From: a virus
Virus record (IMG/VR): IMGVR_UViG_3300025528_000005
Span: 69,139 to 133,138 of that record
DNA length: 64,000 nucleotides
Reading direction: 5' to 3' (one strand)
Under the pieces are notes generated by a model. That model did not search any database. It was given only the letters and a program-made list of their open reading frames with translations, and was not told the origin of the DNA. The first letter of the stretch is position 1. The number at the start of each line of letters is the position of its first letter. The translations under genes and the position numbers were made by a program. This document shows, piece after piece, positions 31,953 to 59,920 of this stretch.

Positions 31953-32393
31953 TTATTCCTCATCGGGATTATCACCGCCAAATAGACGGCCATGGCGAGT
32001 CCGATCGTATCTCCCCGCTCGGCGATGGATATGATCGGCGATACGTTGATCCTTGCCGATACGCCTGTCTTGGTCCTTGTTGTAGCTGTGACCTATGTAA
32101 ACACCTCCCAGCGCCCCAGCGCCTCCACCGATGCCCGTAGCCATAGCGGTACGCTTAACTTTCTGGAGAAAAGGGTTTTTACGACTGGCGACTAAACCTA
32201 CGCCAAGGCCTACGGCTGCTCCTAAGGTGCCAAGCGCCTTAATCGCAGGTCTCGTATTACGCCTATTTTCTTCGTTATAGATACGCTTACGTGCTTCGTC
32301 AGTGGCCGCAAATTCGCCGGTTTCATCATGATAATGAACACCTGGCTCCAGCTCACGCCAGGCGGCTATTTTCTCAAGGTATCTGTTCATCAT
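31953..32393 (-). CDS. Tagged putative internal head protein
   Basis: Starts MMNRYLEKIAA; two Gly/Ala hydrophobic segments. Confidence 0.65.
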   Translation of the reverse strand: MMNRYLEKIAAWRELEPGVHYHDETGEFAATDEARKRIYNEENRRNTRPAIKALGTLGAAVGLGVGLVASRKNPFLQKVKRTAMATGIGGGAGALGGVYIGHSYNKDQDRRIGKDQRIADHIHRRAGRYDRTRHGRLFGGDNPDEE

Positions 32394-32396
32394 GAT

Positions 32397-32708
32397 TTAG
32401 CGATAGAAGATGTTCGGTTTATCACCGACCTTTTTCTTGAAGGTCTCGTTCACGGCAGGATGGCCACTGTTCGGTTGAGCGTGCAGCTTGTTCGCCGTTC
32501 GGACTAGTTTATCATGATCATGGAGCGCACGTTCTCCCCGGGGAAGACTTGATGGCGCACTGACGACACGGCCCTGGTGGTTGAGGAGAACTCCCTTGGT
32601 CCGTTGCAGCCGGTTGGCCGCGGCCATGCCCAGCTGCGCCAAGCGGCTGCCAATGTTTTCAGGGCTGCGGATTAGCGCAGAGGCTTTCTCGAGGTATTTG
32701 TTGGTCAT
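32397..32708 (-). CDS. Tagged putative internal head protein
   Basis: Starts MTNKYLEKASA; basic. Confidence 0.6.
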   Translation of the reverse strand: MTNKYLEKASALIRSPENIGSRLAQLGMAAANRLQRTKGVLLNHQGRVVSAPSSLPRGERALHDHDKLVRTANKLHAQPNSGHPAVNETFKKKVGDKPNIFYR

Positions 32709-32718
32709 AAGTTAAATA

Positions 32719-32952
32719 TTAAATCATCCTCTTAGACTTAAGAAGTCTCTTCTCAACATGTTTATTCAGAAGATTTCGCATAGATCTTTCATAGTACGAA
32801 CTTAGTGTAGACCCTAATCCCGGCCGTAGTTTTTCACCCTGGGTATATAGGACTCTCGCATCATGGGATATAGCTTTATCTACTAACCGTTCCAGAAGGT
32901 TATATTGGTCCCGGTAGGAGTCGGCGATCTTGATCAGATACCTGTTGGTCAT
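32719..32952 (-). CDS. Tagged putative internal head protein
   Basis: Starts MTNRYLIKIAD. Confidence 0.55.
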   Translation of the reverse strand: MTNRYLIKIADSYRDQYNLLERLVDKAISHDARVLYTQGEKLRPGLGSTLSSYYERSMRNLLNKHVEKRLLKSKRMI

Positions 32953-32956
32953 AACC

Positions 32957-33847
32957 TTAGACGTTCTGGATCAGATCGCAGATCAAACGCTGCAAATCAA
33001 GAGGTAGGGTTTCGAGAACCTGCTTAGCGTTCATGGGGCCGGCGTCGATTTCCTTGGCGACGTCTTCCCCGATGTACTGAGCAATTCGGTCGCGTCCGAC
33101 ACGGAGAATGCTTTCGTAAGGAACTTCCTTGCCGCAAAGCTTGACGTTCAGACTGGTGACAACCGCCGCCTCCTTAGTGAGGATCGCTTCACGATAGAAG
33201 TCGAAACCCTTGGCATGCAGGCCGGCCTCCTTGTCCATCTGAGTGACCGTCGAGCAGATATCCTGGATGGTCTCTGACTTCATCGTCAAGGTATCGAGGC
33301 GATTCAGAGCGCTAGCAATCTTGACGAAGTCAGGATTCTTGGTGGCTTGAAAACGGGCTGCCAAAGCCTTTACAGCCGCTTCCTTACTCAAGAACCCATG
33401 TCCGGAATAGCGAAGAACGTTCTCGGACGGTTCAACACCGACGGCTTGGGCTTCCTTATAGAGCTCGGCGGCTCGATCAGCCAGGCGTTGAGGATCGGGA
33501 AAGCCGGTACCTTCGCCGTCAAAGGCAGCTTGTTTAGTCAGGTACTCTGCCTTGAGATCTCGGCCGGCATTGGCTTTGCGTTCGTTCGCCGCTTTCACCA
33601 GCTTGTCTGAGAGGTCGGAAACGACATCCTCGACGCCGTAGAGCCGAACGGCCTTAGCCACTTTCTCGATCGAGAAAACGTCAACAGGCTTGTATTCAAC
33701 AGCCTCGTGGTACTTCAGCTGCAAAGCCGTAGCGATGCAAGAATCTCGGTTGCTGAGAGGCATCTCTTGATCGACGTGAGCCTCCTTCACCAACGGCAGT
33801 GCTTCTGGAACGAGCGTAAGGATTTCCTTAAGAGTATATGCGAGCAT
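32957..33847 (-). CDS. Hypothetical head protein rich in K-x-A motifs
   Basis: VKEAH, TKQAA, YKEAQ, SKEAA, DKEAG and TKEAA repeats. Confidence 0.65.
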   Translation of the reverse strand: MLAYTLKEILTLVPEALPLVKEAHVDQEMPLSNRDSCIATALQLKYHEAVEYKPVDVFSIEKVAKAVRLYGVEDVVSDLSDKLVKAANERKANAGRDLKAEYLTKQAAFDGEGTGFPDPQRLADRAAELYKEAQAVGVEPSENVLRYSGHGFLSKEAAVKALAARFQATKNPDFVKIASALNRLDTLTMKSETIQDICSTVTQMDKEAGLHAKGFDFYREAILTKEAAVVTSLNVKLCGKEVPYESILRVGRDRIAQYIGEDVAKEIDAGPMNAKQVLETLPLDLQRLICDLIQNV

Positions 33848-33858
33848 CTTGATTCCGG

Positions 33859-34479
33859 TTAATTGCTTTGTCCTGTCATCTTGCGTCCGGCAGCGGTGTT
33901 GAATCGAACAGTCTCTTGCATGGCCGTATCCGCAGCAATCGTTTCGCTCTTCTGAGCAATGCGGTCTAGGAACTTGTTAAAAGCCGAGCTATTCTCGGCA
34001 CGTAGGGAATTCTGCAGGTTGCGCTTGGCGAGCGTATGTAAGGCAGCTTCGTCGCTTGGATTCTGAGCAACTGAGAGGAGTTTATCTCGAAGCTCTTTCT
34101 TTTCAGCCTGAGCGTTCAGACGGCGCAAAGCAGACATGCTGAGTGCTGAAACCGCGCCAGCGGTGGCTCCGAGAGCAATCGCTGCGGGAGTCGGTCGACC
34201 TCCAGAGAACAGCTTGGCCGTCGTCTTCGACGCCGTGGCGCCCGTGATGCCTCCGAGGATGCCATGCCAAAGCATGCTCTTTCCCATGCCTCGAAGCTCG
34301 TGTCGACTGAAGCCTGGATGAATGCCGTCGTGAATGGCCTGTGCGTGTCGCTTGATCATATCGATCTTCGACTGCAAAGACAGGCTGTTGAAAATAGGGT
34401 CGTCGAGAATCTGGTGAAGGTCGATTCCTTCGTTGCGATAGAAGTTCAGCAGACTCAGGACAATTTGTTCGTCGTTCAT
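33859..34479 (-). CDS. Hypothetical virion protein with hydrophobic hairpin
   Basis: 206 aa; two Gly/Ala segments; internal NKFLDRIA. Confidence 0.6.
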   Translation of the reverse strand: MNDEQIVLSLLNFYRNEGIDLHQILDDPIFNSLSLQSKIDMIKRHAQAIHDGIHPGFSRHELRGMGKSMLWHGILGGITGATASKTTAKLFSGGRPTPAAIALGATAGAVSALSMSALRRLNAQAEKKELRDKLLSVAQNPSDEAALHTLAKRNLQNSLRAENSSAFNKFLDRIAQKSETIAADTAMQETVRFNTAAGRKMTGQSN

Positions 34480-34501
34480 TAGGTGCGGTTCCTGACCTTG
34501 C

Positions 34502-34508
34502 TATTTTA
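34502..34508 (-). promoter_or_regulatory. Late promoter motif TAAAATA
   Basis: Upstream of the 34479-30977 operon. Confidence 0.6.
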
Positions 34509-35132
34509 ACAGAAAGCTTGCGTCTTCCTGCGGCGAACCGCCTCAAGAACCTTGAGAGGATCGTGAGTCAGTCCTCCGGTAAGCATGGGGTTGATGGAGA
34601 ATTTAGTCTTGACCAATCCGGGGAGAGTGTCGGGTTCCGGAAGGTATCGGCTTTCGATGAAGGCAAAATCCCAGCACCCTCTGACGGCAAAACAGCAAAT
34701 GGCTAGGATATCGAACTCGCCTTTGACCAGGTTAGTGGAGGTGACCTCACCTAGACCATTGACCTTGACCACGCGACGGTCGGTGTTCTTGACAAGGACC
34801 GTACCTTGCCAGGTCCCATTCATCGTGTCCTCCTTGATGGAGCTGGTGGCAACCGATTTCACTTCCATCGTTATCGGGCAACCTCGATAAAGGATCTTGA
34901 GATCACCTCTTTCAACATCTCGGTCGGGGATCTTAACCACCTCTTCAACTCCATCCAGGCCAATCAGCCTCCTGCGCAGCATCATCTCCGCCAGATATCC
35001 CTGCATGTACCCACGCAGAGACGGATTCTCATCCATGAGAGTTTCGATGTCGGACGTAGAAACGCCGGCTAAGATCGACGTTCCAGAGACTGTGTTGGGA
35101 GTGTGGTTGAATTCCTCGAAGCTACTGTCCAT
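34506..35132 (-). CDS. PD-(D/E)xK restriction-endonuclease-like protein
   Basis: G..AE...IPD.D..RGDL......MEVKS catalytic pattern. Confidence 0.6.
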   Translation of the reverse strand: MDSSFEEFNHTPNTVSGTSILAGVSTSDIETLMDENPSLRGYMQGYLAEMMLRRRLIGLDGVEEVVKIPDRDVERGDLKILYRGCPITMEVKSVATSSIKEDTMNGTWQGTVLVKNTDRRVVKVNGLGEVTSTNLVKGEFDILAICCFAVRGCWDFAFIESRYLPEPDTLPGLVKTKFSINPMLTGGLTHDPLKVLEAVRRRKTQAFC

Positions 35133-35378
35133 GCGTTGTTAAAGAGGAAATCGATTCTAAGGCCGTTTTTAGGCCCGTAGAGCGATTTTTATGCCAAGGT
35201 GGCTATCTCGGTATATCTCAGGTCCTTTAAACGCTCCTGAGCTCGATTTGAGGCCTTTCTGACAGCTTGTAGGTCTCCAGGGATTCCGATTGAATATTTG
35301 ACAAGTACGGGAGACGGAGGTTAGCGGTCAAAACGGGCTGTAAAGCCGCGCCAGCCTTGGCGCTTCTACGATTGGTCC

Positions 35379-35385
35379 TATTTTA
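35379..35385 (-). promoter_or_regulatory. Late promoter motif TAAAATA
   Basis: Upstream of the nuclease gene, at the origin edge. Confidence 0.45.
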
Positions 35386-35419
35386 AGGCCTGGTTTACGC
35401 CACGGTCGAGGTGCCGCGA

Positions 35420-36457: not shown

Positions 36458-36459
36458 GG

Positions 36460-36756: not shown

Positions 36757-37377
36757 ATGGAAAGTCTGACAACCTCGGCAAGGAATGTGCCGAAGATGTC
36801 TACTCCAACTCTGGAGGTTCGAAGGAACTACTACGTCATTCCGGATGGTCAAAGATACCACTACTTCCCTATCACGGTATCTGACGACCGTGAACGACCG
36901 TTTATAAGGTTCTCTAAGGCTCCTCCCGTCCTTATGGAGGGTATCGCCATCATAGGAGAACCCAGGTCCCGGAGAGCGCCTCGTCTGTATCACGTCCCTT
37001 TGCAGGACCTGATGCGTGGCCTCATTCGTAAATCCAGAGAGATCAAACCTGCTAATCGAGTAGCGACCAATGGAAGTACAGGAAACCCAACAGACCACAA
37101 CTCCTCAGACGGTTCAGACCAGGCGACAACTTCGACTGGCGGAGAATGTGCCGATAGAACCGTTCAACGTGTCGACCAACAGCGAGCTGGCGACCTTATT
37201 GAAATGGAAGTCTGCGAAGCTGCTGACCTTGCTTGGACGGAACAAATCGACGCACTACTCCACCATCTATCTGAAAAAGAAGGGGAAGAGTGGGAAATTG
37301 CGGATCCTGCACAATCCAGACAGGTTGATGAGAGCAGTGCAATACAGGATCTTGAAAGAGATTCTGGAGAAAGTTGA
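36757..37377 (+). CDS. Hypothetical protein overlapping the RT 5' end (or structured RNA)
   Basis: GAGG RBS and a plausible first 100 aa; the last 308 nt overlap the RT in another frame. Confidence 0.4.
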   Translation: MESLTTSARNVPKMSTPTLEVRRNYYVIPDGQRYHYFPITVSDDRERPFIRFSKAPPVLMEGIAIIGEPRSRRAPRLYHVPLQDLMRGLIRKSREIKPANRVATNGSTGNPTDHNSSDGSDQATTSTGGECADRTVQRVDQQRAGDLIEMEVCEAADLAWTEQIDALLHHLSEKEGEEWEIADPAQSRQVDESSAIQDLERDSGES

Positions 37378-38206
37378 AGTACCTGGATACATCCATGCTT
37401 TTGAGAGGGGCAGGAGTATCCCGACCATGGCTCGAGCTCATGTTGGCAAAGGCCTGGTCATTAGCATTGACCTAAAGGATTTCTTCACCTCTATCAAGCA
37501 GTACCATTTGTTTCAGATTTTCAAGCACCTGGGTTTTGGAGATGCACCGGCTCGGACCCTCTCCGAGCTCTGCACCTATCAAGCCTTCGTCCCGCAAGGC
37601 GGGTTGACCAGCCCCAAGCTGAGCAACATCGTCACGGCGCTGACGTTCGGACCGATTCTCAAGGAGTATTGTGACCGGAACGGCTATACGATCACAATCT
37701 ACGCGGATGACGTTACGATCTCGGCGAACGAAGATCTGATCGGCAAATACGGGATTGGTGCTGTTGAAGAAATCCTCCAATTTGTATCAGACACGGTCTC
37801 CTCCTTCGGCTTCCGAGTGAACCGCAGGAAGACCAAACTGATGCGCCCTTTCCAACGACAGTATGTATGCGGCGTCGTTGTGAACCGCACGATCAATCTG
37901 CAAAAAACTGAGCGTCGCAAACTCAGAGCCATGGTGTACAACGTGAAGCGTCACGGTGTCGAAGCAGAGGCCGCACGCAGCGGTCTCACGCCGAGCGCGT
38001 TCATCAGTCGACTCATGGGGCGATTGAACTGGTTCAGCCAGCTGAATCCCGAAGCTGGTGCTCGCTTGTTGTCAAAGCTTAGAGAAGTCGTTGAGGAGCA
38101 AGGCCAACCCAACGCCAGAGCTGGAGAAGTAGAAGCGATTGTGTCTTCAGACAGCTCAAGCACCGCACCAGGTGCCTCGACCGCATCCGATGCGCCCTGG
38201 AGCTAG
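37070..38206 (+). CDS. Retron-type reverse transcriptase
   Basis: K.R.L.NP, HAFERGRSI..MARAH (NAxxH-like), DLKDFFTSI, PQGGLTSPKLSN, YADD, and VCGVVVN (VTG-like); no maturase or endonuclease domain. Confidence 0.92.
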   Translation: MEVQETQQTTTPQTVQTRRQLRLAENVPIEPFNVSTNSELATLLKWKSAKLLTLLGRNKSTHYSTIYLKKKGKSGKLRILHNPDRLMRAVQYRILKEILEKVEVPGYIHAFERGRSIPTMARAHVGKGLVISIDLKDFFTSIKQYHLFQIFKHLGFGDAPARTLSELCTYQAFVPQGGLTSPKLSNIVTALTFGPILKEYCDRNGYTITIYADDVTISANEDLIGKYGIGAVEEILQFVSDTVSSFGFRVNRRKTKLMRPFQRQYVCGVVVNRTINLQKTERRKLRAMVYNVKRHGVEAEAARSGLTPSAFISRLMGRLNWFSQLNPEAGARLLSKLREVVEEQGQPNARAGEVEAIVSSDSSSTAPGASTASDAPWS

Positions 38207-48346: not shown

Positions 48347-48826
48347 TTACTCAGCAGCCTTCGAGGCCTTGCGACCACGCTTAGGAGCGGCTTCGGTCTT
48401 GGCTTCAACCGGCTCAGAGACTTCGTCGACGACGGCCTCTGCCTCTTCAGAGGTCTCCGGCTGCCGCCCGACAGCTTCAGACGTCGCCACCGCTTCCCTC
48501 TCAGCCTTCTCCTGAGCTTCCCTGGCCTTCTCTGCCCTATATTCTTCTGACGTCATGCCGCGATAGGGATTCACGGTTTCAATGACCTTGACGCCCCCGA
48601 CCGGTTCTTTAATTTCCGGCTTCTTGTCGGTAATCTCGATCCAATCTCGTTCAAGGGCGTATGCAAAGTCGGGGTGGTCTACGTCTTCCGCGCGAATTGC
48701 CTTGAATCCACCTCGATTGATAATCAAGAAGCCCTGTTTAAACTGAAGGTTCGTGTCGGTCTTGTTGACGACGTAAAGTTGCTTGTTCATAAGTTTGGTC
48801 CTTTCTAAATTAACGATCGTACCCAT
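48347..48826 (-). CDS. Hypothetical virion protein
   Basis: Acidic tail ending KRGRKASKAAE. Confidence 0.6.
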   Translation of the reverse strand: MGTIVNLERTKLMNKQLYVVNKTDTNLQFKQGFLIINRGGFKAIRAEDVDHPDFAYALERDWIEITDKKPEIKEPVGGVKVIETVNPYRGMTSEEYRAEKAREAQEKAEREAVATSEAVGRQPETSEEAEAVVDEVSEPVEAKTEAAPKRGRKASKAAE

Positions 48827-49133
48827 CAGGATTCCGGTACATGGAGTCGATCTTTTTAAGAATCTGATTGTCTTTGTGTTGATGATACTTATGAAGACCG
48901 AGAAATCCGGCGGTTCCGAGAGCTCCGCCTACAACACCGGTCTTGGCTCTCGTTTGAAACGATCGGCCTGCTTCGACTCGGGCCCGGCGCTCCGCTCGCT
49001 GCGGCGTAATACCCTTCTTGGCAGCGTGTGAGAGAATGTCAGACTTGACCTTCCACTCTCTGGCAGAATGACCGGAGAGACGGTCAAGAAATTTCACTAC
49101 CTTCGAGATATAGCGGTTCGCTTTGCCGGCCAT
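48810..49133 (-). CDS. Tagged-family basic protein with TM segment
   Basis: Likely start MAGKANRYISKVV (degenerate tag), downstream of a TAAAATA motif; GVVGGALGTAGFLGL. Confidence 0.55.
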   Translation of the reverse strand: MAGKANRYISKVVKFLDRLSGHSAREWKVKSDILSHAAKKGITPQRAERRARVEAGRSFQTRAKTGVVGGALGTAGFLGLHKYHQHKDNQILKKIDSMYRNPDGYDR

Positions 49134-49222: not shown

Positions 49223-49504
49223 GATGATGGCAGGGAAGGACGGTACCCATACGCCGCAAACAACCGAGGTATCGCACCTGTCGTTTGGAGGATATCTTGA
49301 CAACGACCGCTAACTGTTCAACGCAGGTCAACCAACGCCGCTACACCCTAACCTTCCATGTTTGTAAACCGGTCTAGGGCTCAGGTCCCCTCTGGGGCCT
49401 GGGCTTTATTTAGCTTCGATAGTCCGGATTGCTTCTGCGCAGGCTTGACGACGCTCATGACCTTACTTAAAATTCGTAATGTCCAGTTAACTACAGATAG
49501 GAAT

Positions 49505-51004
49505 ATGACATCACCGGGCTCTAACAAGCGTCGTAAGTGGACGCCTGAAAGCTTTGTAGAGTTTTGCATTAGCAAATACGGAGATAAGTACGACTATTCG
49601 AACACGGCCTTTCTAACCGTCAATAAAAGGATTTCAGTCCGCTGCCGAATCCACGATTGCGTCTTTACTCCATTTGCTCACGACCACTTACGGGGCCGAG
49701 GCGGATGCCCCAGGTGCAAAGCCGATGCAACGGGAGAAAGAATACGAGCTCTTCGAGGGATTACCAGGGAGTCTTTCTTAGAAAGGGCTCGAAAGGTACA
49801 CGGGGACAAGTATGACTATTCACGGGCAGTGATCGGTCGATCGGTAGACAAGATTGAAGTTATCTGTCCGATACATCAAATCTCCTTCTTCCCGACGATT
49901 GCAAACCATTTGAACAACGGTACGGGATGTCCGGAGTGCGGAAGGGAAGCTATTGGCAAAAAACACGCTTTGTCCCCAAAGGAATTCATCGCCAGAGCAA
50001 AGGAAGTCCATGGTGATAAATACGACTATTCCCTTGTTTCGTTTGATAGACTGCACGACAAGGTAAGGATCATATGTAGCAAACACGGTGAGTTTACCCA
50101 GCTTGCGTATGACCACCTAGGAGGTCATGGATGCGAGAAATGTGGAGGTCTTTCATCGGAACCCGTTCAGGAAATTCTGACTATCCTTGAGTCTTACGGG
50201 CTCGAAGCCTTACCTGAGATAGCTCTTCCTAATGGATCAAAACTGGATATCTACATCCCCTCTCTTCGAATTGCCATAGAATATAACGGTTTAAGATGGC
50301 ACACCGAAGAGTTTAGGCCTGACAGAAAGTACCATCTTAAAAAGACCCTCGAAGCTAACCAATACGGTATTCATCTTATCCATATCTGGGAGGACGACTG
50401 GGTTTTCGGAAAGGAAAAGACGATCTCCTGGCTTAAGTCTCAACTAGGGCTTTCTGATAGAAAGTTCAACGCGAGAGACTTGGAAGTTCGTCTAGCTTCC
50501 ATGAAAGAAATAGGGGCGTTCGTAGACAAGCATCATATGCAGGGTAAGCCTTCTGCGTGCGAACTGTGTTACGGGTTGTACACTAAAGAAGGAATGCTGG
50601 TTGCAGCCATGATGTTTTCATCCAAGAACTGCCCTCCGGGAGAGATCTGTCTCGAAAGATTTTGTTCAGACGGACATGTTCGAGGCGGATTTAGTAAGCT
50701 CCTGTCTGCGTTCAAGAGAGAGCACGGATCTCGTTTCGAGAAAATAGTCAGTTTCTCCGATCGGTCGTGGAGCACTGGAAAGGTATACCATTCTACCGGA
50801 TTCACCTTGGTAGGTCACGGAGAACCCAGATATTGGTGGGTAAGAGGCCAAAGAAGGTACGATCGTAGAGCCTTCCAAAGGAAGGAACTTCCAAAACGCT
50901 TAGAGACGTTTGACGAAACGTTATCAGAAGCAGAAAACTGTCGTCGTAACGGCTATAGAAAGCTTTACGATTGCGGTGTGACTAAGTGGGAGTTGAAACT
51001 CTAG
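49505..51004 (+). mobile_element. Free-standing homing-endonuclease-like gene (DUF723-type repeats, PD-(D/E)xK nuclease, GNAT/Mom-like C-terminus)
   Basis: Three K.HGDKYDYS...I.C..H..F.......G.GCP.C repeats; LDIYIP...IAIEYNG..WH; C-terminal HH.QG...GLY...F...ERFC...GGFSKLL...SFSD. Confidence 0.8.
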
Positions 51005-51055: not shown

Positions 51056-51949
51056 TTAGAAGTTCAGGACAACGACTCCGTTGACGTTGCCGATACCTAC
51101 GCCGACCGCTTCGTAGGAGGTGAACTCGATGATGTCCTGTTCGACCTTCAGGAACACGGTGGCATCCTGGAGGGCGTAGAACTGACCGAGGTATTCCTGC
51201 GGAGCAAAGACGAGGCACTGGGTATCCGGCAGAATGTCGTGCTTGTTGGTCACGATCACCTTGTAGCCGAAGAAGGTGTCCAGCGTACCCTGACCGCGGA
51301 ACAGATCCGAGGCAGCAGGCGAACCGATTTCAGTGGAGGGGAAGGCCAGCAGATCAGCGTACATCGACTGCGTCATCAGCAGGCAGCCGACAGGCAACTG
51401 GTGACGGAGCATGTTCTTGATGCCTGCCACCAGATTAGCCTTCGTGAAACCGCCAGAAATGTTGAACACATTGTTGTTGTCGGTGGCCATCTGGATGACG
51501 TTGTCATAGAAGTTTCTGTCTTCCTGCTTCTGCATGTCCTTGACGCTGTTTTCCTGCAGCACGGTACGGATGTCCGTGCGGTAGGTAGCCAGCTCGAACT
51601 TGCTCTTCTTGAACGAAGCAGAAGAGATCTTCTGGAAGGTCACCGGATAGCGGGCTGTTTTCCAGTAACGGATCTCAGCGCGGCCCAGGAACGGCAGGTT
51701 GGCAGCAATCGAATCCGGTTCCTTTTCGACGATGATCGTCGGCTCTTCCGTCACCTGACGGTCGAGTTCGGCAGCCGTGACACTAATCGGGTTCAGAACC
51801 TTGCGGGTGAAGCCGTCTTCACGGAGCTTTTGGCGCACAAAGGCCGAGATGGCAACGCCGGCTTCCTTAGTCAGACCTTGATCGATCTTGTCCAGGAAGG
51901 ACTGGTTCAGAAACTGAACGTTGATAGTTTCGAGGTTGTATCCGCTCAT
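51056..51949 (-). CDS. Major capsid protein
   Basis: 297 aa after the scaffold and decoration genes; HK97-like organisation; strong terminator follows. Confidence 0.8.
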   Translation of the reverse strand: MSGYNLETINVQFLNQSFLDKIDQGLTKEAGVAISAFVRQKLREDGFTRKVLNPISVTAAELDRQVTEEPTIIVEKEPDSIAANLPFLGRAEIRYWKTARYPVTFQKISSASFKKSKFELATYRTDIRTVLQENSVKDMQKQEDRNFYDNVIQMATDNNNVFNISGGFTKANLVAGIKNMLRHQLPVGCLLMTQSMYADLLAFPSTEIGSPAASDLFRGQGTLDTFFGYKVIVTNKHDILPDTQCLVFAPQEYLGQFYALQDATVFLKVEQDIIEFTSYEAVGVGIGNVNGVVVLNF

Positions 51950-51967
51950 TTTTATTCTTCCCCCTTA

Positions 51968-52402
51968 TTAAACCTTGAGCACGACCAAGTGAGCGGTCTG
52001 GGGGTTGGGGCCCGATACAGCCGCAACGACGTCGAGAACATACGCATTGATCGGCTCGGAGCCATCGGTCGCGGCGGCAGTCAGCACACCGTTCTTGACA
52101 GTCAGAGCCTGGCCGGGCGTGTAGCTCCCTGCCTCGTAGTTCGAAACCTTGGCGATGAAGTTGTCCCAGAGGACCACCGCTTGACCGGCGTTTGCGGCAG
52201 AACCGCTGTCGCCGTTACCGACAACCACGAGGCCGGTCAGAGCCACGGGGCTCGCACCGACCTTCTCGACGGTGTTGTCAGTCGATTTGGTGACCCAGTC
52301 ACCGTTGACGAGGGTTTCCCCTGCCTTGATAGGCTCGGATCGATCGAGCGAGCCGTCATACGGCCAGCCGCGGATGATCTCCGCCACACGTTCCATCAAC
52401 AT
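51968..52402 (-). CDS. Head decoration/cement protein
   Basis: 144 aa directly upstream of the capsid gene; GDWV...Y.PG..LTV..G.L pattern. Confidence 0.65.
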   Translation of the reverse strand: MLMERVAEIIRGWPYDGSLDRSEPIKAGETLVNGDWVTKSTDNTVEKVGASPVALTGLVVVGNGDSGSAANAGQAVVLWDNFIAKVSNYEAGSYTPGQALTVKNGVLTAAATDGSEPINAYVLDVVAAVSGPNPQTAHLVVLKV

Positions 52403-52493
52403 ATTTTTATTCCTTTAAGCAAATATGCTTTTGTTATTACTGTGACCAAGTCACCTAATTGACTTGGTCCTAGAATTGCGCTACTGCTAAACC

Positions 52494-52541: not shown

Positions 52542-52844
52542 TTATTTCTTCTTCTGAAAGCGATTGCGAATTGCAGCTTCCGCGGCGCCGAGAGAACCGA
52601 GAACGGCTGCGCCCTTGCCGGCCGCTTTAAGCGTCCGTGCACTGAAGGGTTTCATGTTCGGAAACTTCTTCAGATCAGGGGACCCTGGACGTTTTGCCCA
52701 GTCGACAAGATCTTCTTTGAACTGATTGGAGATAGACCACGTACCGGCAACGTTTGCTCCCAGCAGTCCACCTGCGATAGCCGAATTGCGGACGCTGTAT
52801 TTCTTTTCCTTGTCGGCGGCGATTTTCTCTAAGTACTTGTTCAC
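52542..52844 (-). CDS. Tagged putative internal head protein
   Basis: Starts (GTG) MNKYLEKIAA; two Gly/Ala hydrophobic segments. Confidence 0.65.
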   Translation of the reverse strand: MNKYLEKIAADKEKKYSVRNSAIAGGLLGANVAGTWSISNQFKEDLVDWAKRPGSPDLKKFPNMKPFSARTLKAAGKGAAVLGSLGAAEAAIRNRFQKKK

Positions 52845-52852: not shown

Positions 52853-53170
52853 TTATTGGGAAGACGAGCTTTTCGATTTCATGGCGGCGTTCAAAGCCGA
52901 GAGACCACCGACGACGCCGGCATAGCCGAGAGAGCTGCGCCCCACGGCTCGTCTCTTGAAAGCTCGATCAAGGATGGGAGAAACTTGGCGACCCAGGGCA
53001 CCGGAGCGGTTCAATCGCTGAACCATGCTCTTGTGATTCTGCAGGCCGATCGCTGCACCTAATGCACCGCCGACCGCGCTGGCAGGGATCGCCTTCTTTG
53101 CAACGTCGGAGACTTTGTTGTTCTCGCCCTTGTCATGCCGGGCGAGTTTCTCGAGGTACTTGTTCGTCAC
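52853..53170 (-). CDS. Tagged putative internal head protein
   Basis: Likely GTG start giving MTNKYLEKLAR; two Gly/Ala segments. Confidence 0.65.
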   Translation of the reverse strand: MTNKYLEKLARHDKGENNKVSDVAKKAIPASAVGGALGAAIGLQNHKSMVQRLNRSGALGRQVSPILDRAFKRRAVGRSSLGYAGVVGGLSALNAAMKSKSSSSQ

Positions 53171-53175: not shown

Positions 53176-53781
53176 CTAGCTGAGGATGAACTCCAACAAA
53201 GGATCCGTCTGAGGACGGGCTACCCCGGCGGGAGCCCCAAGGCTCCACGGTTCATCCGCAACGGATGCAACCTTAGTCAGCACTTCTGGATTAAGACGCT
53301 TCAGCTCAGCCAGGTCCTCGTTGGTAAAAGCACCGACCGAAGCCAGCTTGCTCAAAGACTCCGGCAGCTCCGGTTCTTCTTCTTTCGCTGCAGACGCCTC
53401 GGTTACAGCTTTTTCCAGATCTTCGTAGAGCTTGGCATTCTCGGTCTCGAGCTCGGCAACACGTCCTTCGAGAGCTTCGATGTACGTTGCTGCCTTCTCT
53501 AGGAGATCGGCCGTCGGATTGGTCTCCGGTTCGAGAGTGATGTTGGTGAGCTCACGAACGTTGATGTTCGCAGCCTTGACTAACTTCACCGCCTCTTCCA
53601 TGTCGATGCCCTTGTCCGTCAGCGCAGACAGGGCCTCTTTTTCCATAAGAGTCTGGAGAACTTCGAAGCGAGCGTCTTCTTCAGACAGCCCAGCTTCCTT
53701 CAACATCTCGATTGCGACGCTCTCTGGAGTCAGGCGAAGTTCCGCGGCCTGTTCGCGGAGAGTTTGTGCGACGTTACTCAT
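53176..53781 (-). CDS. Scaffold-like coiled-coil head protein
   Basis: Acidic helical protein with EKEAL, EKAA and KLAS motifs. Confidence 0.6.
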   Translation of the reverse strand: MSNVAQTLREQAAELRLTPESVAIEMLKEAGLSEEDARFEVLQTLMEKEALSALTDKGIDMEEAVKLVKAANINVRELTNITLEPETNPTADLLEKAATYIEALEGRVAELETENAKLYEDLEKAVTEASAAKEEEPELPESLSKLASVGAFTNEDLAELKRLNPEVLTKVASVADEPWSLGAPAGVARPQTDPLLEFILS

Positions 53782-53805: not shown

Positions 53806-54270
53806 TTAGGTACGGGCATGTTCAATTGCCTTGTTAATTTTAACTGCGGCGTAATCTGTAGCGAGGTTCGCTCCTCCTATTAGGCCGATATATTTGGCCT
53901 TCCCAAGAGGACCGGAAAAATTCATTCGTGGCTTAACGAAGCGATCGAGCGCAGCTGAGGCCCCGACTCCAGTTCCGACGAGAACGCCGGTTTGAGCTAT
54001 CTCTTTCTTTCGTTCGGGGCTCAGGAATTCCGCACGTTTTTCCCTGCGACCGCTATAAAGCTTTTTCGCCCCGTAGGCTGCACTACCTACGATCGAGGCT
54101 GGCACTACAACGCGGCGGAGAAATTTGTTGGCCCGATTTTGAGAGGGATTGATAAGCTTGGCCTTGTTAGCTCGATGTTCGAGATCCGGATCCGAGTGAA
54201 TTCGCACAACGTTTCCTTCCGGATCAACGTCGATAATAGCCGCAAGCTTTAGAAGATATTTATTGCTCAT
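53806..54270 (-). CDS. Tagged putative internal head protein
   Basis: Starts MSNKYLLKLAA; internal EKRAE; three hydrophobic segments. Confidence 0.65.
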   Translation of the reverse strand: MSNKYLLKLAAIIDVDPEGNVVRIHSDPDLEHRANKAKLINPSQNRANKFLRRVVVPASIVGSAAYGAKKLYSGRREKRAEFLSPERKKEIAQTGVLVGTGVGASAALDRFVKPRMNFSGPLGKAKYIGLIGGANLATDYAAVKINKAIEHART

Positions 54271-54354: not shown

Positions 54355-55509
54355 TTACTCTCCGTAGATCTCGGCGGCCTTAGCGTTCACCAGCTCGACA
54401 GCCTTGTCAAAATCCACGCCGGACGCAACCAGAGCGTCAAGGGCAGCCTTCTTTTCCTGACCACGGCGGGCAGCCATCGCAGCTCCTCCGGCCACGGCAC
54501 CCGCGGCGCCAGCACCGATGCCGATCTTAGCCGCGCGGCTCAGACCCTTCTTGGCGGGAGCCATCAGCGCACGGCCGGCAGCGGGGACCAGAGCGTTCGC
54601 CTTCTTCACCATCTCAACGGCCTGGTCGAAGTCCACGCCTCGATCGAGCAGAGCACCCAAGGCAGCCTGCTTGATCTGCACGCTTTCCTCACGCTCGATC
54701 TCTTCGGCAGCAGCCTTGACCATTTCGACAGCAGACTCGAAGTCATAACCATCGTTAACCAGAGCGATAACGGCAGCAGCCTTTTCCTGCTCGTCGGTCG
54801 GAACTTGATTAGGCACAGCCTGGTCTTCAACCCCGCCTTCTGCCGCAGTGATCGGAGCAGCCTTAGCTTCCACGCCTTGGCCGTGAGGGGTAGCACCTTG
54901 AGCGACTGCGTCGGCGATGATGCCTTCCAGAATCTGGTTGATCGTTCCTTCGTTCTTGATGCCATCGCCAGTCGGCATAGGCTTGATCTTGGCGTCGTCT
55001 TCAGCAACGACTTGCGCCGAATTGACGATGTTCTTCTGGGGCACAGACCCAGGGGCCACACCGTCATGCAGGTTGACGTCGCCGGCTTCAGCCAGCTTTT
55101 CCAGGAGGGCGTCAGCCAGAGCCTTACCGGCCTCAGCAGCTTCTTTCTTCATTTCAGGTTCCTTGTCAGTGGTGTTAGTAGTAAGTTTGAGGGCGGCAAC
55201 CTTGCTCATCACCTCTTGCGCCAGGGCAGCACCTTGAAGACGTGCTTCCTTGCAATGCTCCTTCTCCTTGTCGTTGACCTTCTTAGCGTCTTCGACGTCT
55301 TTTTCAGCGGCCTCTATGGCCGCCTTCGCCTTGGAGATGTTCTCCTTGGCGCTTTCGTGTTCTTTGTCCTCTTCCTTCTCCAGAGCCTTAGCCTCTTCGG
55401 TCATTTCCGCTTCCTTATTCAGGCCTGCGGTTTTCTCGAGATCCGAGAGAAGTTCATCCAAAGTCATAGTCATCATTAGTCCTTTTAAGGTGGCCTCCAT
55501 GTGCTGCAA
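54355..55509 (-). CDS. Capsid scaffolding protein
   Basis: Ala/Glu/Lys-rich; three repeats of EK.AA..AL...G.DF..AVE(M/L)V; many K-x-A motifs. Confidence 0.7.
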   Translation of the reverse strand: MQHMEATLKGLMMTMTLDELLSDLEKTAGLNKEAEMTEEAKALEKEEDKEHESAKENISKAKAAIEAAEKDVEDAKKVNDKEKEHCKEARLQGAALAQEVMSKVAALKLTTNTTDKEPEMKKEAAEAGKALADALLEKLAEAGDVNLHDGVAPGSVPQKNIVNSAQVVAEDDAKIKPMPTGDGIKNEGTINQILEGIIADAVAQGATPHGQGVEAKAAPITAAEGGVEDQAVPNQVPTDEQEKAAAVIALVNDGYDFESAVEMVKAAAEEIEREESVQIKQAALGALLDRGVDFDQAVEMVKKANALVPAAGRALMAPAKKGLSRAAKIGIGAGAAGAVAGGAAMAARRGQEKKAALDALVASGVDFDKAVELVNAKAAEIYGE

Positions 55510-55538
55510 TAGAGACCTCTTGAAATTTTTGTTTCGAA

Positions 55539-57038
55539 TTAACAGCGCTTCTTAATCAGCCGCACCATTGCGCTTTCGGCGAGGCGGTACGTTGATCGAT
55601 AATCATCGGCGCGTTTTTCGACTAAACCTATTTTAATCTCTCCAGCTTGGTGAGAAGCCTGATTTCTCCTCATCTTCTGCTCAATCATCTGTGTGATGTA
55701 CCATTTTGCAGCCAACGCCGCCCCTCCGATAATCATCAGAGTCTTTACGATCCCAGGAAGTCCTCCTGGTGTTTGTGATTGAGGCAATAGATTCTGCTGG
55801 CGGAATCGCTCGTAAGGAGTCATCTCAACGTGTGGGCCATTACCGACAAAACCTACGTTGGTTCCAGGTATGTAAGTCGATCCGTTCACATGAACGAAAG
55901 CTCGATCAGTGACATACTCTGGGAGCAATGACGCTTGTTTCACGGAAGGCATCAAAGCCGAGATGATAGCAGGATTGGGCCCCTGCGGTTCTCCAAAGTC
56001 CTTCTCAGCCATAGGAAGCCCTTCGATTCCGACTTCCTTGATGTAGCCAGCCACCAAGTCTCCAATCCCTTCTCCTTGCTTGCCCATCGTCTTTCGAGCG
56101 ATAAGCTCCGACAGCCAGCTAATCGAAGGGCTGATTCCTAGATGAGCCAGGGATTCGAGCACGGGTTTGAGCTCGTAGTTTCGAAGAATGTCGAGCGCCC
56201 TCTCGTCCGGGTCCGAAACCTTGTCAAGCACCGCATCGAGATTTGGATCGGCGTCGATCACCACACCGTCCGTGACCTCTTTGATGAACTCACTGAGCTT
56301 TTTGAGCGTAGCTGTCTTTTCGGTCAGACCTTCAACTTCAGCGAGTTCGGCGGAACCTATGACACGTCCTTCGTCAGAAGCGACTTTCTGCAAAACGGAG
56401 CTGGTAACGTCGGCCGGCCGAATTACGATGGAAATATCGAAAAATTTAAGCGGGGCAACGTTCAAGGCCATGACCTTGCGTCCGTCAGGATAAATGCGCC
56501 CTAGCTCTTCGGAGAGGTGTTCGCAGTACTCCTGTCGGGAATGAGCCCGGTTACCGCATATGCTGCAAACGTCGTAAGGCGTGCGGCACGCCATAGACGT
56601 AGCAGGGTAGTCTCCTCGCTCAATGCGTTCGATGACGTCTCGGCCTTTGTCTTTGTCGATCCAAGCAATGAGCTCGACCCGGTGCATGCGATCGTTGTAG
56701 ATGGCGAAGACCACCTGGCCGATCGCCTTGGCAGGATCCTTGTTGATGTGATTGCGGAAGACGTGCGCCGGCGACGTTTCGAACGTCTTGTAGTAATCCA
56801 GGAGCGTGTTCTCTGGGAAATAGTCCTGGTTCCGATTGGCGCCGAAATACTCCCCTGCCCCCATCGCCAGGATGTGGAGGTAGACCTTGTTGGGCTCCGG
56901 GTGAATGCGAGAGATGTATTCGACGATCTTGCTGTCCGCCGCGGCCTTGATGAGGCCGGAGCGGTCGGTACCATCGATGATCCGGATAGCAGGTTCGTTC
57001 TCGGCGAAGTAGGGATCCGACTTGATAAGCTTAAGCAT
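55539..57038 (-). CDS. Putative prohead maturation protease
   Basis: Position before the scaffold gene; H(VFRN)H, ATSMAC and F.DIS.V..PAD patterns; CSICG Zn knuckle. Confidence 0.55.
   Translation of the reverse strand: MLKLIKSDPYFAENEPAIRIIDGTDRSGLIKAAADSKIVEYISRIHPEPNKVYLHILAMGAGEYFGANRNQDYFPENTLLDYYKTFETSPAHVFRNHINKDPAKAIGQVVFAIYNDRMHRVELIAWIDKDKGRDVIERIERGDYPATSMACRTPYDVCSICGNRAHSRQEYCEHLSEELGRIYPDGRKVMALNVAPLKFFDISIVIRPADVTSSVLQKVASDEGRVIGSAELAEVEGLTEKTATLKKLSEFIKEVTDGVVIDADPNLDAVLDKVSDPDERALDILRNYELKPVLESLAHLGISPSISWLSELIARKTMGKQGEGIGDLVAGYIKEVGIEGLPMAEKDFGEPQGPNPAIISALMPSVKQASLLPEYVTDRAFVHVNGSTYIPGTNVGFVGNGPHVEMTPYERFRQQNLLPQSQTPGGLPGIVKTLMIIGGAALAAKWYITQMIEQKMRRNQASHQAGEIKIGLVEKRADDYRSTYRLAESAMVRLIKKRC
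55629..55635 (-). promoter_or_regulatory. Late promoter motif TAAAATA
   Basis: Upstream of the scaffold gene, inside the protease 3' end. Confidence 0.55.
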
Positions 57039-58341
57039 TATTCTTGCGTGAGTGATTGAACAGGGCTGCTCCGGCTGCGGCCATACCCAGGCCGCCTACC
57101 GCCCTACCGAGCCCTTTCGCAAACCGGCCCTTGTTGTGAGCGATGTACTCACCGATCTCCCGGGCCGAGTTGCGTCGGTAGTTCTTCGATCCTTTGATGT
57201 ACTCCGTGCCGATCCCGTGCTCGCCCCGCTGGACGTGAACGTTCGTCTGGAAGTTCTTGTAGATCATATTCTTCTGCGCCTTCTGCACGCTCTTAGGCTG
57301 GATTTTGTAGAAGAGGTTGCCCTCCATCTTCCGGAACATCGTCTTGACCTCGGGGTTCGTCACGCCTCGATATTCCTGACGCCAGGTCGGCAAATTGATT
57401 TTTGCGACGTACTTGTTCTGACCGGTCAGATGGCGCTTCATCGCCTTTCCGAGCGCCTTCCTCTGCTCCCGGATCAGGTCGGCCTGGTTCTTGACCTTCC
57501 CGGCAGAGATGGCTTCCTGCTGCGCGGCGTAGTTCTGGGCGTGAAACTTCCGCTTCTCCGCGAACACCAGATTCTTGTTCTTCTCGCCGAGACCAACGAC
57601 TCCGGAGACACCCTTATCGGAACGGTTGGGCTTCAAGCCCTGCCTCTTGATGTTGGCGATGTTCTCCGCGGTCGAGCCGTGGTAGAGTGTTTCACGGCCG
57701 GTCAGATGGCCGCGATCGAACTGATTCTTCGTGATCTTGAGACCGGAGTAGACGCCGGCCGCCCCCGCCGCCTCGCCATAATAGGCCTTCTCATCCTCAG
57801 CCCGTTTCTCCTGGCCTTGAGCCTTCAGTTCTCGATGGATGCCTCGAAGCGCAGCAAGGGCCTTTCGGTCCAGCTCTGCTTGCAGCGCGGCACGATCTCG
57901 GTTGTCCTTATTGGTTTTGTAATTGGCCGCGCTGACGCCTAGGCCCGTCGCGCTGATTCCGAGAGAGGCCTTTGCGGAAAACGGAGTCTCCTTCCACGTC
58001 TTGGCCAGATGCTTTCCAACACCGGCCAAGCTTGCCGCTTTATCGAGAAACGGATTTGCGTCCGCCAAGGCCTTGCGTTTGAGATGCTGATAGCTGAGCT
58101 CGAGCGCCTTGCCGGCCGCCGCACCTTTGGCAGCACCGACTATGGTGTTCCTTACTCCTCTCAAGCCGAGACGAAAATTTCCCTCGTCTCCCTGACGAGT
58201 TGTGCTCAGCGCACCGTCCAATGCCCCGCCTGCTCCAAAGGCCGTGGTCATAGGATTCCGCCGACCGGCATTGACCGCTTCTCGGGCCATTCGGCCGTAC
58301 TGTCGCAGATCAGCTACCTTCTCAAGGTATTTGTTAGACAT
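57031..58341 (-). CDS. Tagged putative internal head protein with ADP-ribosyltransferase-like domain
   Basis: Starts MSNKYLEKVAD; TLYHGSTAENIANIKRQGLKP...LVFA....A.NYA. Confidence 0.7.
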   Translation of the reverse strand: MSNKYLEKVADLRQYGRMAREAVNAGRRNPMTTAFGAGGALDGALSTTRQGDEGNFRLGLRGVRNTIVGAAKGAAAGKALELSYQHLKRKALADANPFLDKAASLAGVGKHLAKTWKETPFSAKASLGISATGLGVSAANYKTNKDNRDRAALQAELDRKALAALRGIHRELKAQGQEKRAEDEKAYYGEAAGAAGVYSGLKITKNQFDRGHLTGRETLYHGSTAENIANIKRQGLKPNRSDKGVSGVVGLGEKNKNLVFAEKRKFHAQNYAAQQEAISAGKVKNQADLIREQRKALGKAMKRHLTGQNKYVAKINLPTWRQEYRGVTNPEVKTMFRKMEGNLFYKIQPKSVQKAQKNMIYKNFQTNVHVQRGEHGIGTEYIKGSKNYRRNSAREIGEYIAHNKGRFAKGLGRAVGGLGMAAAGAALFNHSRKNNA

Positions 58342-59098
58342 AGGCTTTAGGAGAAAACGAAGACGCCGACGAAGTTTGAGCGTAGCGGGATTCGAGTTCC
58401 GTCAGGGTCCTGATCGTCTGAGGGTCGATACCTTCACCGTGAACAGCGTTGGCCAGAATCGATGATAGCAGATTGGCATCAGTGGCGACGTGAGGAGCGA
58501 ACTTGAAGATCGTCTCAGCGTAGTTCATGACCTTCTCTTGCTTGGCCTGACGCAAGATCGGGTTCATCGAGATGGCTCGACGCAGTGCTTCGACAAACTG
58601 GTTATGCATCTTGCTGTTCGCAATGCTCTTGGCAGCCGTAGCCAAACCAGAAACGCCGAGACCCAGGGTGACACCAGCCAAACCCTTTCCAATTCCCTTG
58701 GTGAACTCACCAGCCAGATCGGATACATTGAAACCGAAGGCTGCGCTCTTGGTTAGCAGCTCTTCGTAAAACCCTTCGAGAAATTCAAGCGCCTTCTCCT
58801 CGTCGCCGGCGCACTTTTCCAAAGCCAGCTGTTTGATCTTTTCAAGCATTCCTGTTCCTTTAAAATCTGCCGACTTCGTCTGAAAATCGGCTTTTACCTT
58901 CTGTATTGCAGTTTCGTGAGAGACCGGACGAAGCTTTCCCGTCGTTCCCTTCACGCTGATCCTATTTGTTGTATTCGGCATATTTGGTTTTGCCGCCGAA
59001 ATTGCACCGCCTCCGATGCCAAACCCGAGGCCACTTCGAGGATAAGTTCTGGGGCTGCCTAGAAACCCTCGCACCTTTTGAGCAGAGATCGTCGGCAT
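58334..59098 (-). CDS. Hypothetical head protein
   Basis: LTKSAA motif and TM-like segment; the real start may be MLEKIKQ at 58849. Confidence 0.6.
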   Translation of the reverse strand: MPTISAQKVRGFLGSPRTYPRSGLGFGIGGGAISAAKPNMPNTTNRISVKGTTGKLRPVSHETAIQKVKADFQTKSADFKGTGMLEKIKQLALEKCAGDEEKALEFLEGFYEELLTKSAAFGFNVSDLAGEFTKGIGKGLAGVTLGLGVSGLATAAKSIANSKMHNQFVEALRRAISMNPILRQAKQEKVMNYAETIFKFAPHVATDANLLSSILANAVHGEGIDPQTIRTLTELESRYAQTSSASSFSPKAYV

Positions 59099-59101
59099 CG
59101 C

Positions 59102-59920
59102 TTATTTTTTCTCCGTCTTTCTCGGCGACCACTTGTCCATGACCTTCTTACCGACATAGGCCGCTGCGACCGGCGCGGCGGCGGCCAGGCCATAGCTCGC
59201 CATGTTTTTCGACACGACCTTCTTCAGGAACTGGTTCGCCGCCTTTCCGCCCTTGTGCGCCTTGATGCCTTTGTAGGCGTGATAGTTCGCTGCACCTTCT
59301 TCCCGGAGAACAAGGGCACCTGGAATGGCTGCTACGGCAGGGGCGTAGTCTCTGGTTTTCTCGTTGGACAGAGCTCCGACGGTTGCCAGTTCAAACACAC
59401 CGTGCGATCGAGGATGTCGGCCGATCATCGTACCGACACGCTTTAGCTTGGCATGGGTCTGGAGATCTTTGGCGTGTCCCAGCTCGTGCATGATGATGTC
59501 TTTGTTGACGGTCTTTCTCGAGCCGAGACCTGGCTTTTTCACTCCGGCTATGAATCCTCGGCCCCCGGAGGGATTGTAGATATATCCCGGCGCACCACGA
59601 ACGTTGGAGTGTGAAACAGTGTTGGCCGAACGGGGGTCCAGCTTTTCCCTGCGTTTCATATGCTCTCGGGTGTTGAACGTGACGTTCTTGTGCAGATTGT
59701 TGTCTCGCATGAACTTCTTGATCGTACCGTGATCCGACACGCCCGTATCATTGATAGTGGCCCTAATTTTACGGCTAGTGTAATTCGATAGGAGTGCAAC
59801 CGGAACCTTTCCGACACCTCCTGCTATGAGCGCACCGTACGCCTTTCCAAACTCCGTGCCGGGGTTCTTACGCTTAGGCTCTTCCCCCTTCTCCGCGATT
59901 TTCTCCAGGTACTTGTTCAT
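59102..59920 (-). CDS. Tagged putative internal head protein with zincin (HExxH) metalloprotease motif
   Basis: Starts MNKYLEKIAE; IIMHELGHA...LREEGAANY. Confidence 0.7.
   Translation of the reverse strand: MNKYLEKIAEKGEEPKRKNPGTEFGKAYGALIAGGVGKVPVALLSNYTSRKIRATINDTGVSDHGTIKKFMRDNNLHKNVTFNTREHMKRREKLDPRSANTVSHSNVRGAPGYIYNPSGGRGFIAGVKKPGLGSRKTVNKDIIMHELGHAKDLQTHAKLKRVGTMIGRHPRSHGVFELATVGALSNEKTRDYAPAVAAIPGALVLREEGAANYHAYKGIKAHKGGKAANQFLKKVVSKNMASYGLAAAAPVAAAYVGKKVMDKWSPRKTEKK

Follow-up and report, generated by a model that had tools for sequence, protein, structure and literature searches.

The window analysed here, a 64,000-nucleotide stretch of a phage genome (positions 69,139 to 133,138 of the IMG/VR virus record IMGVR_UViG_3300025528_000005), carries on its minus strand a set of genes whose products share one short N-terminal peptide, hereafter the tag. 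In the translated open reading frames (ORFs) the consensus M-(x)-N-[KR]-Y-L-x-K-[ILVA]-[AS] opens eight of these genes and a variant of it stands on a ninth, the core being the eight residues N-K-Y-L-E-K-I-A at the extreme N-terminus of the tagged proteins. An earlier note on this DNA had read the peptide as a signal that targets injected cargo to the capsid. The tagged genes, and two untagged genes that lie close to them, are the following (aa, amino acids; pI, isoelectric point; ART, ADP-ribosyltransferase).

31953..32393, minus strand: tagged gene 1, 146 aa, MMNRYLEKIA, pI 9.9; two Gly-zipper segments and a decayed internal NPFLQKVK
32397..32708, minus strand: tagged gene 2, 103 aa, MTNKYLEKAS, pI 10.8
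32719..32952, minus strand: tagged gene 3, 77 aa, MTNRYLIKIA, pI 10.1
33859..34479, minus strand: untagged gene, 206 aa, with an internal NKFLDRIA (33955-33978) 39 residues before its end
48810..49133, minus strand: variant-tag gene, 107 aa from the ATG at 49131-49133, MAGKA-NRYISKVV, pI 10.6; family kept in relatives
52542..52844, minus strand: tagged gene 4, 100 aa, GTG start, M-NKYLEKIA, pI 10.3; Gly-zipper
52853..53170, minus strand: tagged gene 5, 105 aa, GTG start at 53168-53170, MTNKYLEKLA, pI 11.1; Gly-zipper
53806..54270, minus strand: tagged gene 6, 154 aa, MSNKYLLKLA, pI 10.2; Gly-zipper; internal NKFLRRVV
57031..58341, minus strand: tagged gene 7, 436 aa, MSNKYLEKVA, pI 10.3; three-module fusion with a putative ART-fold domain (residues ~200-415) and a Gly-zipper tail
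58334..59098, minus strand: untagged basic protein between two tagged genes, 254 aa
59102..59920, minus strand: tagged gene 8, 272 aa, MNKYLEKIAE, pI 10.3; N- and C-terminal Gly/Ala segments

All eight tagged genes were found at the coordinates reported earlier, with the motif at the start of each, although two of the start sites had to be adjusted: the gene at 52542-52844 starts with GTG, and the gene at 52853 starts at GTG 53168-53170 and not at the upstream GTG of a 131-aa ORF. The degenerate copy assigned to the gene at 48810 was likewise recovered as N-R-Y-I-S-K-V-V, five residues past an internal ATG, and its arrangement, M-A-G-x-x-N-[RK]-Y-L-S-K-T, is kept in relatives. The window has 14 matches to a loose pattern, N[KRP][YF][LI]x[KR]xx, every one of them on the minus strand; shuffled sequence gave 0.6. 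The two internal copies described before, NPFLDKAA (58033-58056) and NKFLDRIA, are present, and the scan adds NPFLQKVK (32154-32177) and NKFLRRVV (54106-54129). In the whole 168,216-bp single-contig genome, a pattern scan found only two further good copies, both internal and both in a helicase encoded outside the window.

The proteins behind the tags are otherwise unrelated, the eight cargoes of the window falling into eight different BLAST clusters, and they share the physical character that had been ascribed to them. All nine proteins are strongly basic, with pI values of 9.9-11.1 as opposed to 4.3-6.3 for most structural neighbours of the tagged genes, which are acidic, and the Gly/Ala hydrophobic hairpins noticed earlier correspond to Gly/Ala-rich hydrophobic segments in seven of the nine. 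Searches of PHROGs and Pfam with the small tagged proteins gave no match, and an ESM Atlas search for 32957-33847 gave no usable match. Tagged gene 1 has weak tagged homologues in three relatives (L027, L031 and L047), and the H-E-L-G-H motif of tagged gene 8 is kept in four of five members of its family. Since relatives align only to residues 3-124 of the untagged 206-aa protein, its gene has probably fused with a small tagged module.

Scanning IMG/VR with the back-translated tag consensus yielded 94 stretches, mostly contigs of 40-190 kb and often with 2-5 tag copies per locus. A start codon (ATG, GTG or TTG) lies 1-3 codons upstream in 152 of the 194 distinct motif instances of these loci (78%), and N, K/R, Y, L, K and A are conserved almost without exception, with an abrupt end to the conservation past the Ala; these figures of position and conservation are somewhat inflated because the loci were found through the consensus itself. 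The 159 tagged proteins of at least 40 aa from the window and these loci fall into 74 BLAST clusters, 50 of them singletons, and hence one mark of a T4-type capsid targeting sequence (CTS), a short N-terminal peptide shared by unrelated proteins, is present. Besides the ART-fold and HExxH families of the window, the relatives have among their cargo SNF2 helicases that score above the Pfam thresholds, a 454-aa protein of ligase-OB-like character and many glycine-zipper proteins. The complete relatives are 170-193 kb long with terminal repeats, have a GC content of 40-50% and carry 6-7 N-terminally tagged genes each; in four complete genomes, about 16 of 27 such genes lie within an interval of ~12 kb between the putative portal gene and the gene of the major capsid protein (MCP). 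The motif search over the full genome and relatives that had been proposed thus recovered, in the form of a pattern scan, a clade-wide N-terminal tag.

The codons of the tag differ between copies, as the earlier note had observed: synonymous codons vary within the window and across relatives, and all of them are used at every tag position. Since the codons vary freely and the peptide remains constant across genomes of 40-53% GC, the tag is under selection at the level of the peptide. This bears directly on the proposal that the tag has no function as a protein sequence and is either an RNA or translation-initiation element or the remnant of a duplicated ancestral gene. The first codons are A-rich, which is common for efficient initiation, but the variation of the tag codons excludes an RNA-level signal, and the regions upstream of the tagged genes are unconserved. 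A duplicated ancestor fits poorly with conservation that stops exactly after eight residues, with cargoes devoid of similarity and with decay of the tag when it is internal, and we consider either form of this proposal extremely unlikely.

In 596 Gb of bacterial and archaeal genomes the same pattern gave 115 single matches and none that was multi-copy, and a start-like codon was nearby in 11 of the 115, which is the chance level. The tag is confined to one clade of large phages. A search of the literature found no paper that contains NKYLEK and none that describes the tag.

The history of several cargoes can be followed through gene fusion. The 436-aa protein encoded at 57031-58341 consists of three modules, each of which is a separate tagged gene in relatives, and its leading tag is intact. 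A module of ~105 aa aligns from its own tag onto residues 96-173, where the window has NPFLDKAA, and the alignment of an ART-fold protein of ~260 aa, again beginning at its tag, covers residues 168-413, with EKRAEDEK (around residue 177) as all that remains of the tag there. A second case lies ~5 kb past the right end of the window:

genome 138140-140044, plus strand: LigD-type 3'-phosphoesterase and SNF2 helicase, 634 aa

The two internal tags of this helicase, NKYIEKAA and NRYLVKIA, are moderately preserved and stand between its LigD-type phosphoesterase domain, whose match is at the Pfam cut-off, and its SNF2 domain, and the relatives have the tag at the start of both their helicase and a ligase-like protein. 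The tag is constrained only while it is N-terminal, and decays once internal. Near the gene of the 634-aa helicase lie those of a ligase-OB protein, a split RNA polymerase beta' and the beta subunit.

The putative ART-fold domain of the 436-aa protein was modelled with AlphaFold2 (AF2) at a predicted local distance difference test (pLDDT) score of 92.3. All of its fold matches in the PDB belong to the ART superfamily but are weak (Tpt1/KptA with Z 8.1 over 85 residues, a pertussis-like S1 subunit with Z 7.1), the Foldseek E values are 0.18 or higher and the Pfam PARP match (3e-4) is below the curated cut-off; members of the superfamily have a conserved His in the NAD pocket and an acidic residue, and R31, H36, E146 and E210 are invariant in the alignment of the domain. 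Near homologues of this protein start with the tag, and more distant ones are untagged, including fusions with a WYL domain (P0032-P0042, proteins of ~435 aa). One untagged homologue adjoins an untagged SNF2 helicase, and at L236 an untagged homologue is flanked by an SNF2 helicase on one side and, on the other, by a paralogue whose WYL match is weak. The homologue P0008 ends in ...ENRYLNKVAE..., apparently the tag of the following gene joined to it in frame, by read-through or fusion.

With 74 cargo clusters, a tag that is kept only at the N-terminus and decays on fusion, and the same cargo families occurring untagged elsewhere, the view of the earlier note that this is a modular system of tag plus cargo is, on the sequence evidence, strongly supported.

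Most of the tagged genes lie in a cluster of head genes, of which the following are the principal members.

61883..63733, minus strand: putative portal, 616 aa, at the head of the cluster; homologue of Arash gp218; assigned from size and position
55539..57038, minus strand: prohead protease, 499 aa; phrog_18299, 2e-10 (head-maturation protease); thousands of homologues
54355..55509, minus strand: scaffold-like protein, likely start 55467; 370 aa (370-384), pI 4.8, Ala/Glu/Lys-rich
53176..53781, minus strand: acidic scaffold-like protein, 201 aa, pI 4.3; one helix-hairpin module 'G-I-D-x-E-E-A-V-K-L-V-K'
51056..51949, minus strand: MCP, 297 aa; phrog_2522, 5e-17; 51.5% identity to the Arash MCP gp226

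An AF2 model of residues 1-330 of the protease (pLDDT 80.7) matches varicella-zoster virus assemblin with Z 11.7 and T4 gp21 (5JBL_B) with Z 11.4, the latter over 131 aligned residues at a root-mean-square deviation of 2.8. H97 and S148 are invariant in 41 diverse homologues and probably form the catalytic pair. By its predicted fold together with this conserved His/Ser pair, the protein belongs to the assemblin/gp21 prohead proteases; a phmmer search against PDB sequences gave no match, and only the fold search succeeded. The protease also has an invariant C-x-x-C ... C-x-H cluster (C158, C161, C172 and H174; residues 158-174) inserted in the gp21/assemblin fold, and a C-terminal extension of 250 residues that has a hydrophobic segment towards its end.

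The gene at 54355..55509 follows immediately downstream of that of the protease, like gene 22 of T4, and its product has three repeated helix-hairpin modules, 'G-[VY]-D-F-[DE]-x-A-V-E-[ML]-V'. This protein and the one encoded at 53176..53781 are taken to be scaffold-like from their composition and position only. The 616-aa putative portal has no family match in PHROGs or Pfam. The order of the genes is putative portal, small proteins, protease, scaffold and capsid, which is that of T4 (20-67-68-21-22-23), and the tagged genes cluster between the putative portal and capsid genes, around the gp21-fold protease and the acidic scaffold-like proteins. A head built on a scaffold core with a protease of the gp21 family is thus what the locus would encode, the scaffold being assigned by composition and position.

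Two plus-strand features interrupt this region. A gene for an HNH/homing endonuclease of 548 aa (49358-51004; phrog_559, 1e-101) separates the capsid gene from the structural genes that follow it on the minus strand (48810-49133 onward). A GTG-initiated ORF of 407 codons (51239-52462), antisense to the capsid gene and to a neighbouring 144-aa gene, is almost certainly no gene, although gene callers that take the longest ORF are misled by it.

The 'head-region' location given in the earlier note holds for most of the tagged genes, but not for the three at 31953-32952, which are outside the head gene cluster, beyond the tail-sheath gene, and adjoin homologues of Arash gp242 and gp243 downstream of the PAAR spike gene. 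These three genes count in favour of a reading in which the tag serves as a handle for assembling some other virion or ejection structure (an inner body, a trans-envelope channel, the tail lumen or the baseplate) instead of the scaffold core, the glycine-zipper proteins, for example, bundling through an amphipathic helix. Their neighbours are tail-proximal, glycine-zipper segments occur in seven of the nine window proteins, and the hydrophobic pattern of the tag (i, i+1, i+4, i+5) is typical of helix-helix packing. Nevertheless, helicase, ligase-like and ART-fold enzymes also bear the tag, for which a general loading signal is a better fit than a structural bundle, and most tagged genes lie between the putative portal and capsid genes, so that we regard a handle of this kind as rather unlikely.

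The hydrophobic Gly/Ala segments suggest an association with membranes, and might equally speak for a tag that acts within the infected cell as a localisation, membrane-targeting or complex-recruitment motif of late proteins that are never packaged. The tag itself, however, is hydrophilic and amphipathic and unlike a signal peptide; it is borne by soluble enzymes, the SNF2 helicase for one, and the 596 Gb of cellular genomes hold no such use of the motif. The insertion of strongly basic cargo among head-assembly genes, moreover, parallels known packaged proteins, and a purely intracellular role seems to us improbable.

Two cultured sister phages, Salmonella phage Arash and Vibrio phage D69, have proteases ~44% identical to that of the window and syntenic homologues of every untagged gene tested. 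In the 254-aa protein encoded at 58334..59098, only residues 158-241 align to Arash (100-238 in the case of D69). Neither phage has a homologue of any of the nine tagged genes, a copy of the tag or any other recurrent N-terminal 5-mer. Because the untagged neighbours have syntenic homologues in Arash and D69 and the tagged genes have none, the latter are best regarded as accessory insertions. Mass spectrometry of virions of Arash, which is tagless, listed 116 of 252 proteins as 'structural' (PMC10585845).

The same two phages bear on the proposal that the tag is the recognition or modification site of a dedicated enzyme or chaperone, as in systems resembling those of ribosomally synthesised and post-translationally modified peptides or in the phage's own cassette for ubiquitin-like conjugation, with the two conserved Lys residues as possible acceptors. 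Both Lys are invariant, and a cassette with ubiquitin-like (Ubl), E1, E2 and JAB proteins is found at 26-31 kb of the window; homologues of this cassette are present, however, in Arash and D69, and since these have no tag a link between the two is unlikely. In a phylogenetic profile, 26 ORFs shared by tag-bearing genomes are missing from Arash and D69, and no peptide-modifying enzyme is recognisable among them, those matched in Pfam being a dCMP deaminase, a DHHA1 protein, an SLT transglycosylase, a reverse transcriptase, a ligase-OB protein and a tail fibre; several of the 26 have no known function. We consider a modification site very unlikely. The reverse-transcriptase gene (37070-38206, plus strand) is present in three tag-bearing complete relatives (47-59% identity) and was not found in Arash or D69.

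The phage of the window is uncultured and comes from a bioreactor metagenome; near-identical DNA occurs in metagenomes of bioreactors, and those of soil and compost give partial matches. The region is also present in two metatranscriptome libraries, whose contigs cannot show transcription, ends or level. In one of them (X5), the contigs over window positions 54370-55613 are interrupted at what look like gene boundaries, and the scaffold-like gene lies in the deepest of them (15.8x), which hints weakly at real late transcripts.

Since the tagged genes cluster around genes for a gp21-fold protease, scaffold and capsid, and since the tag resembles the T4 CTS, capsid targeting is the best reading of these data. 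We hypothesize, with a probability of roughly 0.55, that the tag is a capsid or virion loading signal of the kind carried by the internal proteins of T4. The peptide M-(x)-N-[KR]-Y-L-E-K-[IVL]-A would be a portable N-terminal address tag. As a short amphipathic helix, its Y, L, I and A facing one way and its K, E and K the opposite way, it would attach accessory proteins to the scaffolding core while the prohead assembles. That the tagged proteins would bind this core, be present in virions and be injected is what we infer. The cargo would be a variable kit of small basic glycine-zipper proteins, an ART-fold enzyme and an HExxH protein, extended in relatives by the SNF2 helicase and the ligase-like protein. 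The glycine-zipper proteins may be DNA-associated or membrane-inserting ejection proteins; the terms 'membrane-active' and 'injected' used in the earlier note derive from the glycine-zipper segments only and are likewise to be taken as suggestions.

The interpretation offered in the earlier note stands, then, for the modularity of the system and, by analogy, for capsid targeting as the best-fitting reading, but not for removal of the tag by the prohead protease. The residue after the tag is variable (S, A, E, G, K or L), and an internal Glu is missing in ~18% of the copies. As, in addition, the Glu10 of the T4 peptide is unconserved, cleavage of the T4 style cannot be read from the sequence. 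Two possible sites at the end of the tag were considered, a herpesvirus-type [VLI]-x-A|S and a T4-type [LI]-x-E, and neither fits the conserved positions; as a sequence feature, the tag does not end at a prohead-protease site such as the [L/I]-x-E of T4.

Several observations weigh against capsid targeting. Glu follows the Ala in only 24 of 159 copies, leaving the T4 processing residue unconserved, and three tagged genes of the window, as well as some in relatives, are located outside the head cluster. Arash and D69 have homologous protease, scaffold-like and capsid proteins and yet do without the tag. A search for a receptor, based on segments conserved in the tag-bearing clade and differing in Arash and D69, returned only two clade-specific segments, at the N-termini of the 201-aa acidic protein (44 residues) and of the scaffold-like protein (~120 residues), and no receptor stands out by conservation of this kind. 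The cultured relatives are tagless and the tag-bearing phages uncultured, so that packaging is read from sequence. Finally, the resemblance to the T4 CTS extends over only five positions in a short peptide, and may have arisen by convergence or by chance. A complex prediction for the tag (residues 1-40 of the product of the 59102 gene, supplied as an alignment) with the 370-aa scaffold-like and 201-aa acidic proteins scored 0.02 and weighs neither way.

A further reading is suggested by the MCP, whose N-arm carries S-F-L-D-K-I-D (residues 17-23), resembling the Y-L-E-K-I-A of the tag core and conserved in all relatives including the tagless Arash and D69. The class [YF]-[LI]-[ED]-K-[ILV] has very few non-tag occurrences in the genome, the N-arm of the MCP among them. 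The tag might mimic the coat protein, its cargo occupying the helix-hairpin modules of the scaffold (G-V-D-F-D-x-A-V-E-M-V) that would normally hold the coat N-arm, with no need of a dedicated receptor; we put this forward as an unlikely variant. If it were true, any protein given the eight residues would co-assemble into the prohead. Other N-terminal tags presumably occur on the DNA of large phages, among them MNRYDIALGKKPPP, MNWYKxIKxA and closer matches to the T4 CTS, several of which we take to have Tyr at position 4; under coat-protein mimicry, the tag, the T4 CTS and such M-x-x-Y-type tags would represent one ancient and widespread principle of cargo loading in large tailed phages.

As a capsid address label, should it prove to be one, the tag would rank with the clearest natural examples, with an invariant eight-residue core on at least 74 cargo types in a clade of environmental phages, and the virion cargo of such phages would be readable directly from metagenomic sequence. 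The injected kit would then consist of helicase, ligase-like, ART-fold and HExxH enzymes together with small basic glycine-zipper proteins, and would point to what such phages do during the first seconds of infection. The tag would also provide a minimal handle, transferable to foreign proteins, by which these could be loaded into phage capsids, a service that the T4 CTS already renders, and the record of fusion and decay shows how such tags evolve. Should capsid targeting prove to be wrong, the tag would still be a strongly selected short linear motif in need of a partner.

The cargo-loading peptides of encapsulins are likewise short conserved terminal peptides that load diverse cargo into a shell of the HK97 fold by binding to its interior. 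They differ in being usually C-terminal and in binding the shell protein directly, and encapsulins are cellular nanocompartments devoid of DNA, protease and scaffold.

In phage P1, the first 30 residues of DarB are enough for a heterologous protein to enter a myovirus capsid and be delivered to the host (PMC9024508). In contrast to the tag, there is no consensus among the Dar proteins of P1, P1 has no separate scaffold, and the case concerns a single cargo and not a family.

A further parallel may be found in the N-terminal propeptides of head and ejection proteins of the phiKZ/SPN3US type, for which prohead targeting has been proposed and of which SPN3US gp53 and gp54 share identical 15-residue N-termini (PMC5694885). 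Common to both are the proposed N-terminal targeting to the prohead, a large myovirus with a gp21-type protease, hydrophobic segments in the ejection proteins and a multisubunit RNA polymerase. These propeptides, however, are mostly 80-130 residues long, are shared by paralogues only and end at [S/A/G]-x-E, whereas the tag has 8-10 residues, stands on non-homologous cargo and lacks such a motif. Conservation that ends after 8-10 residues, on cargoes that are not paralogous, sets the tag apart from the long propeptides.

The system most like that of the window is the T4 CTS, MKTYQEFIAE, which brings the internal proteins (IPI, IPII, IPIII) and Alt into the scaffold core, after which gp21 removes the peptide (Mullaney and Black 1996, as summarised in PMC9026906 and PMC8442874); the residues of the peptide that are important in targeting are 4 and 7, and those important in processing are 8 and 10 (PMC9026906). 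Aligned from the Met (MKTYQEFIAE and MNKYLEKIAE), the two peptides are identical at M1, Y4, E6, I8 and A9, with F7 of T4 facing an invariant K in the tag, and are too short for a statistical claim of homology. Both are peptides of ~10 residues at the extreme N-terminus of unrelated, basic and fast-evolving accessory proteins, both occur with a prohead protease of the gp21 fold and a separate acidic scaffold in the T4 gene order, and an ART-fold enzyme among the tagged cargo recalls Alt. Unlike in the T4 CTS, N2, K3, L5 and K7 are invariant in the tag, a conserved Glu at the T4 cleavage position is missing, half of the copies have an extra residue after the Met, and conservation is far stronger, the core being invariant across phages whose proteases are only 48-58% identical. 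The cargo types are also many more and include helicase and ligase-like enzymes, for which the tag would play a comparable role, and the phage itself, with a 297-aa MCP and genes for a multisubunit RNA polymerase, is not T4-like. The tag is distinct in sequence from the T4 CTS, and the kind of system to which it appears to belong, N-terminal capsid targeting, is one already known from T4.

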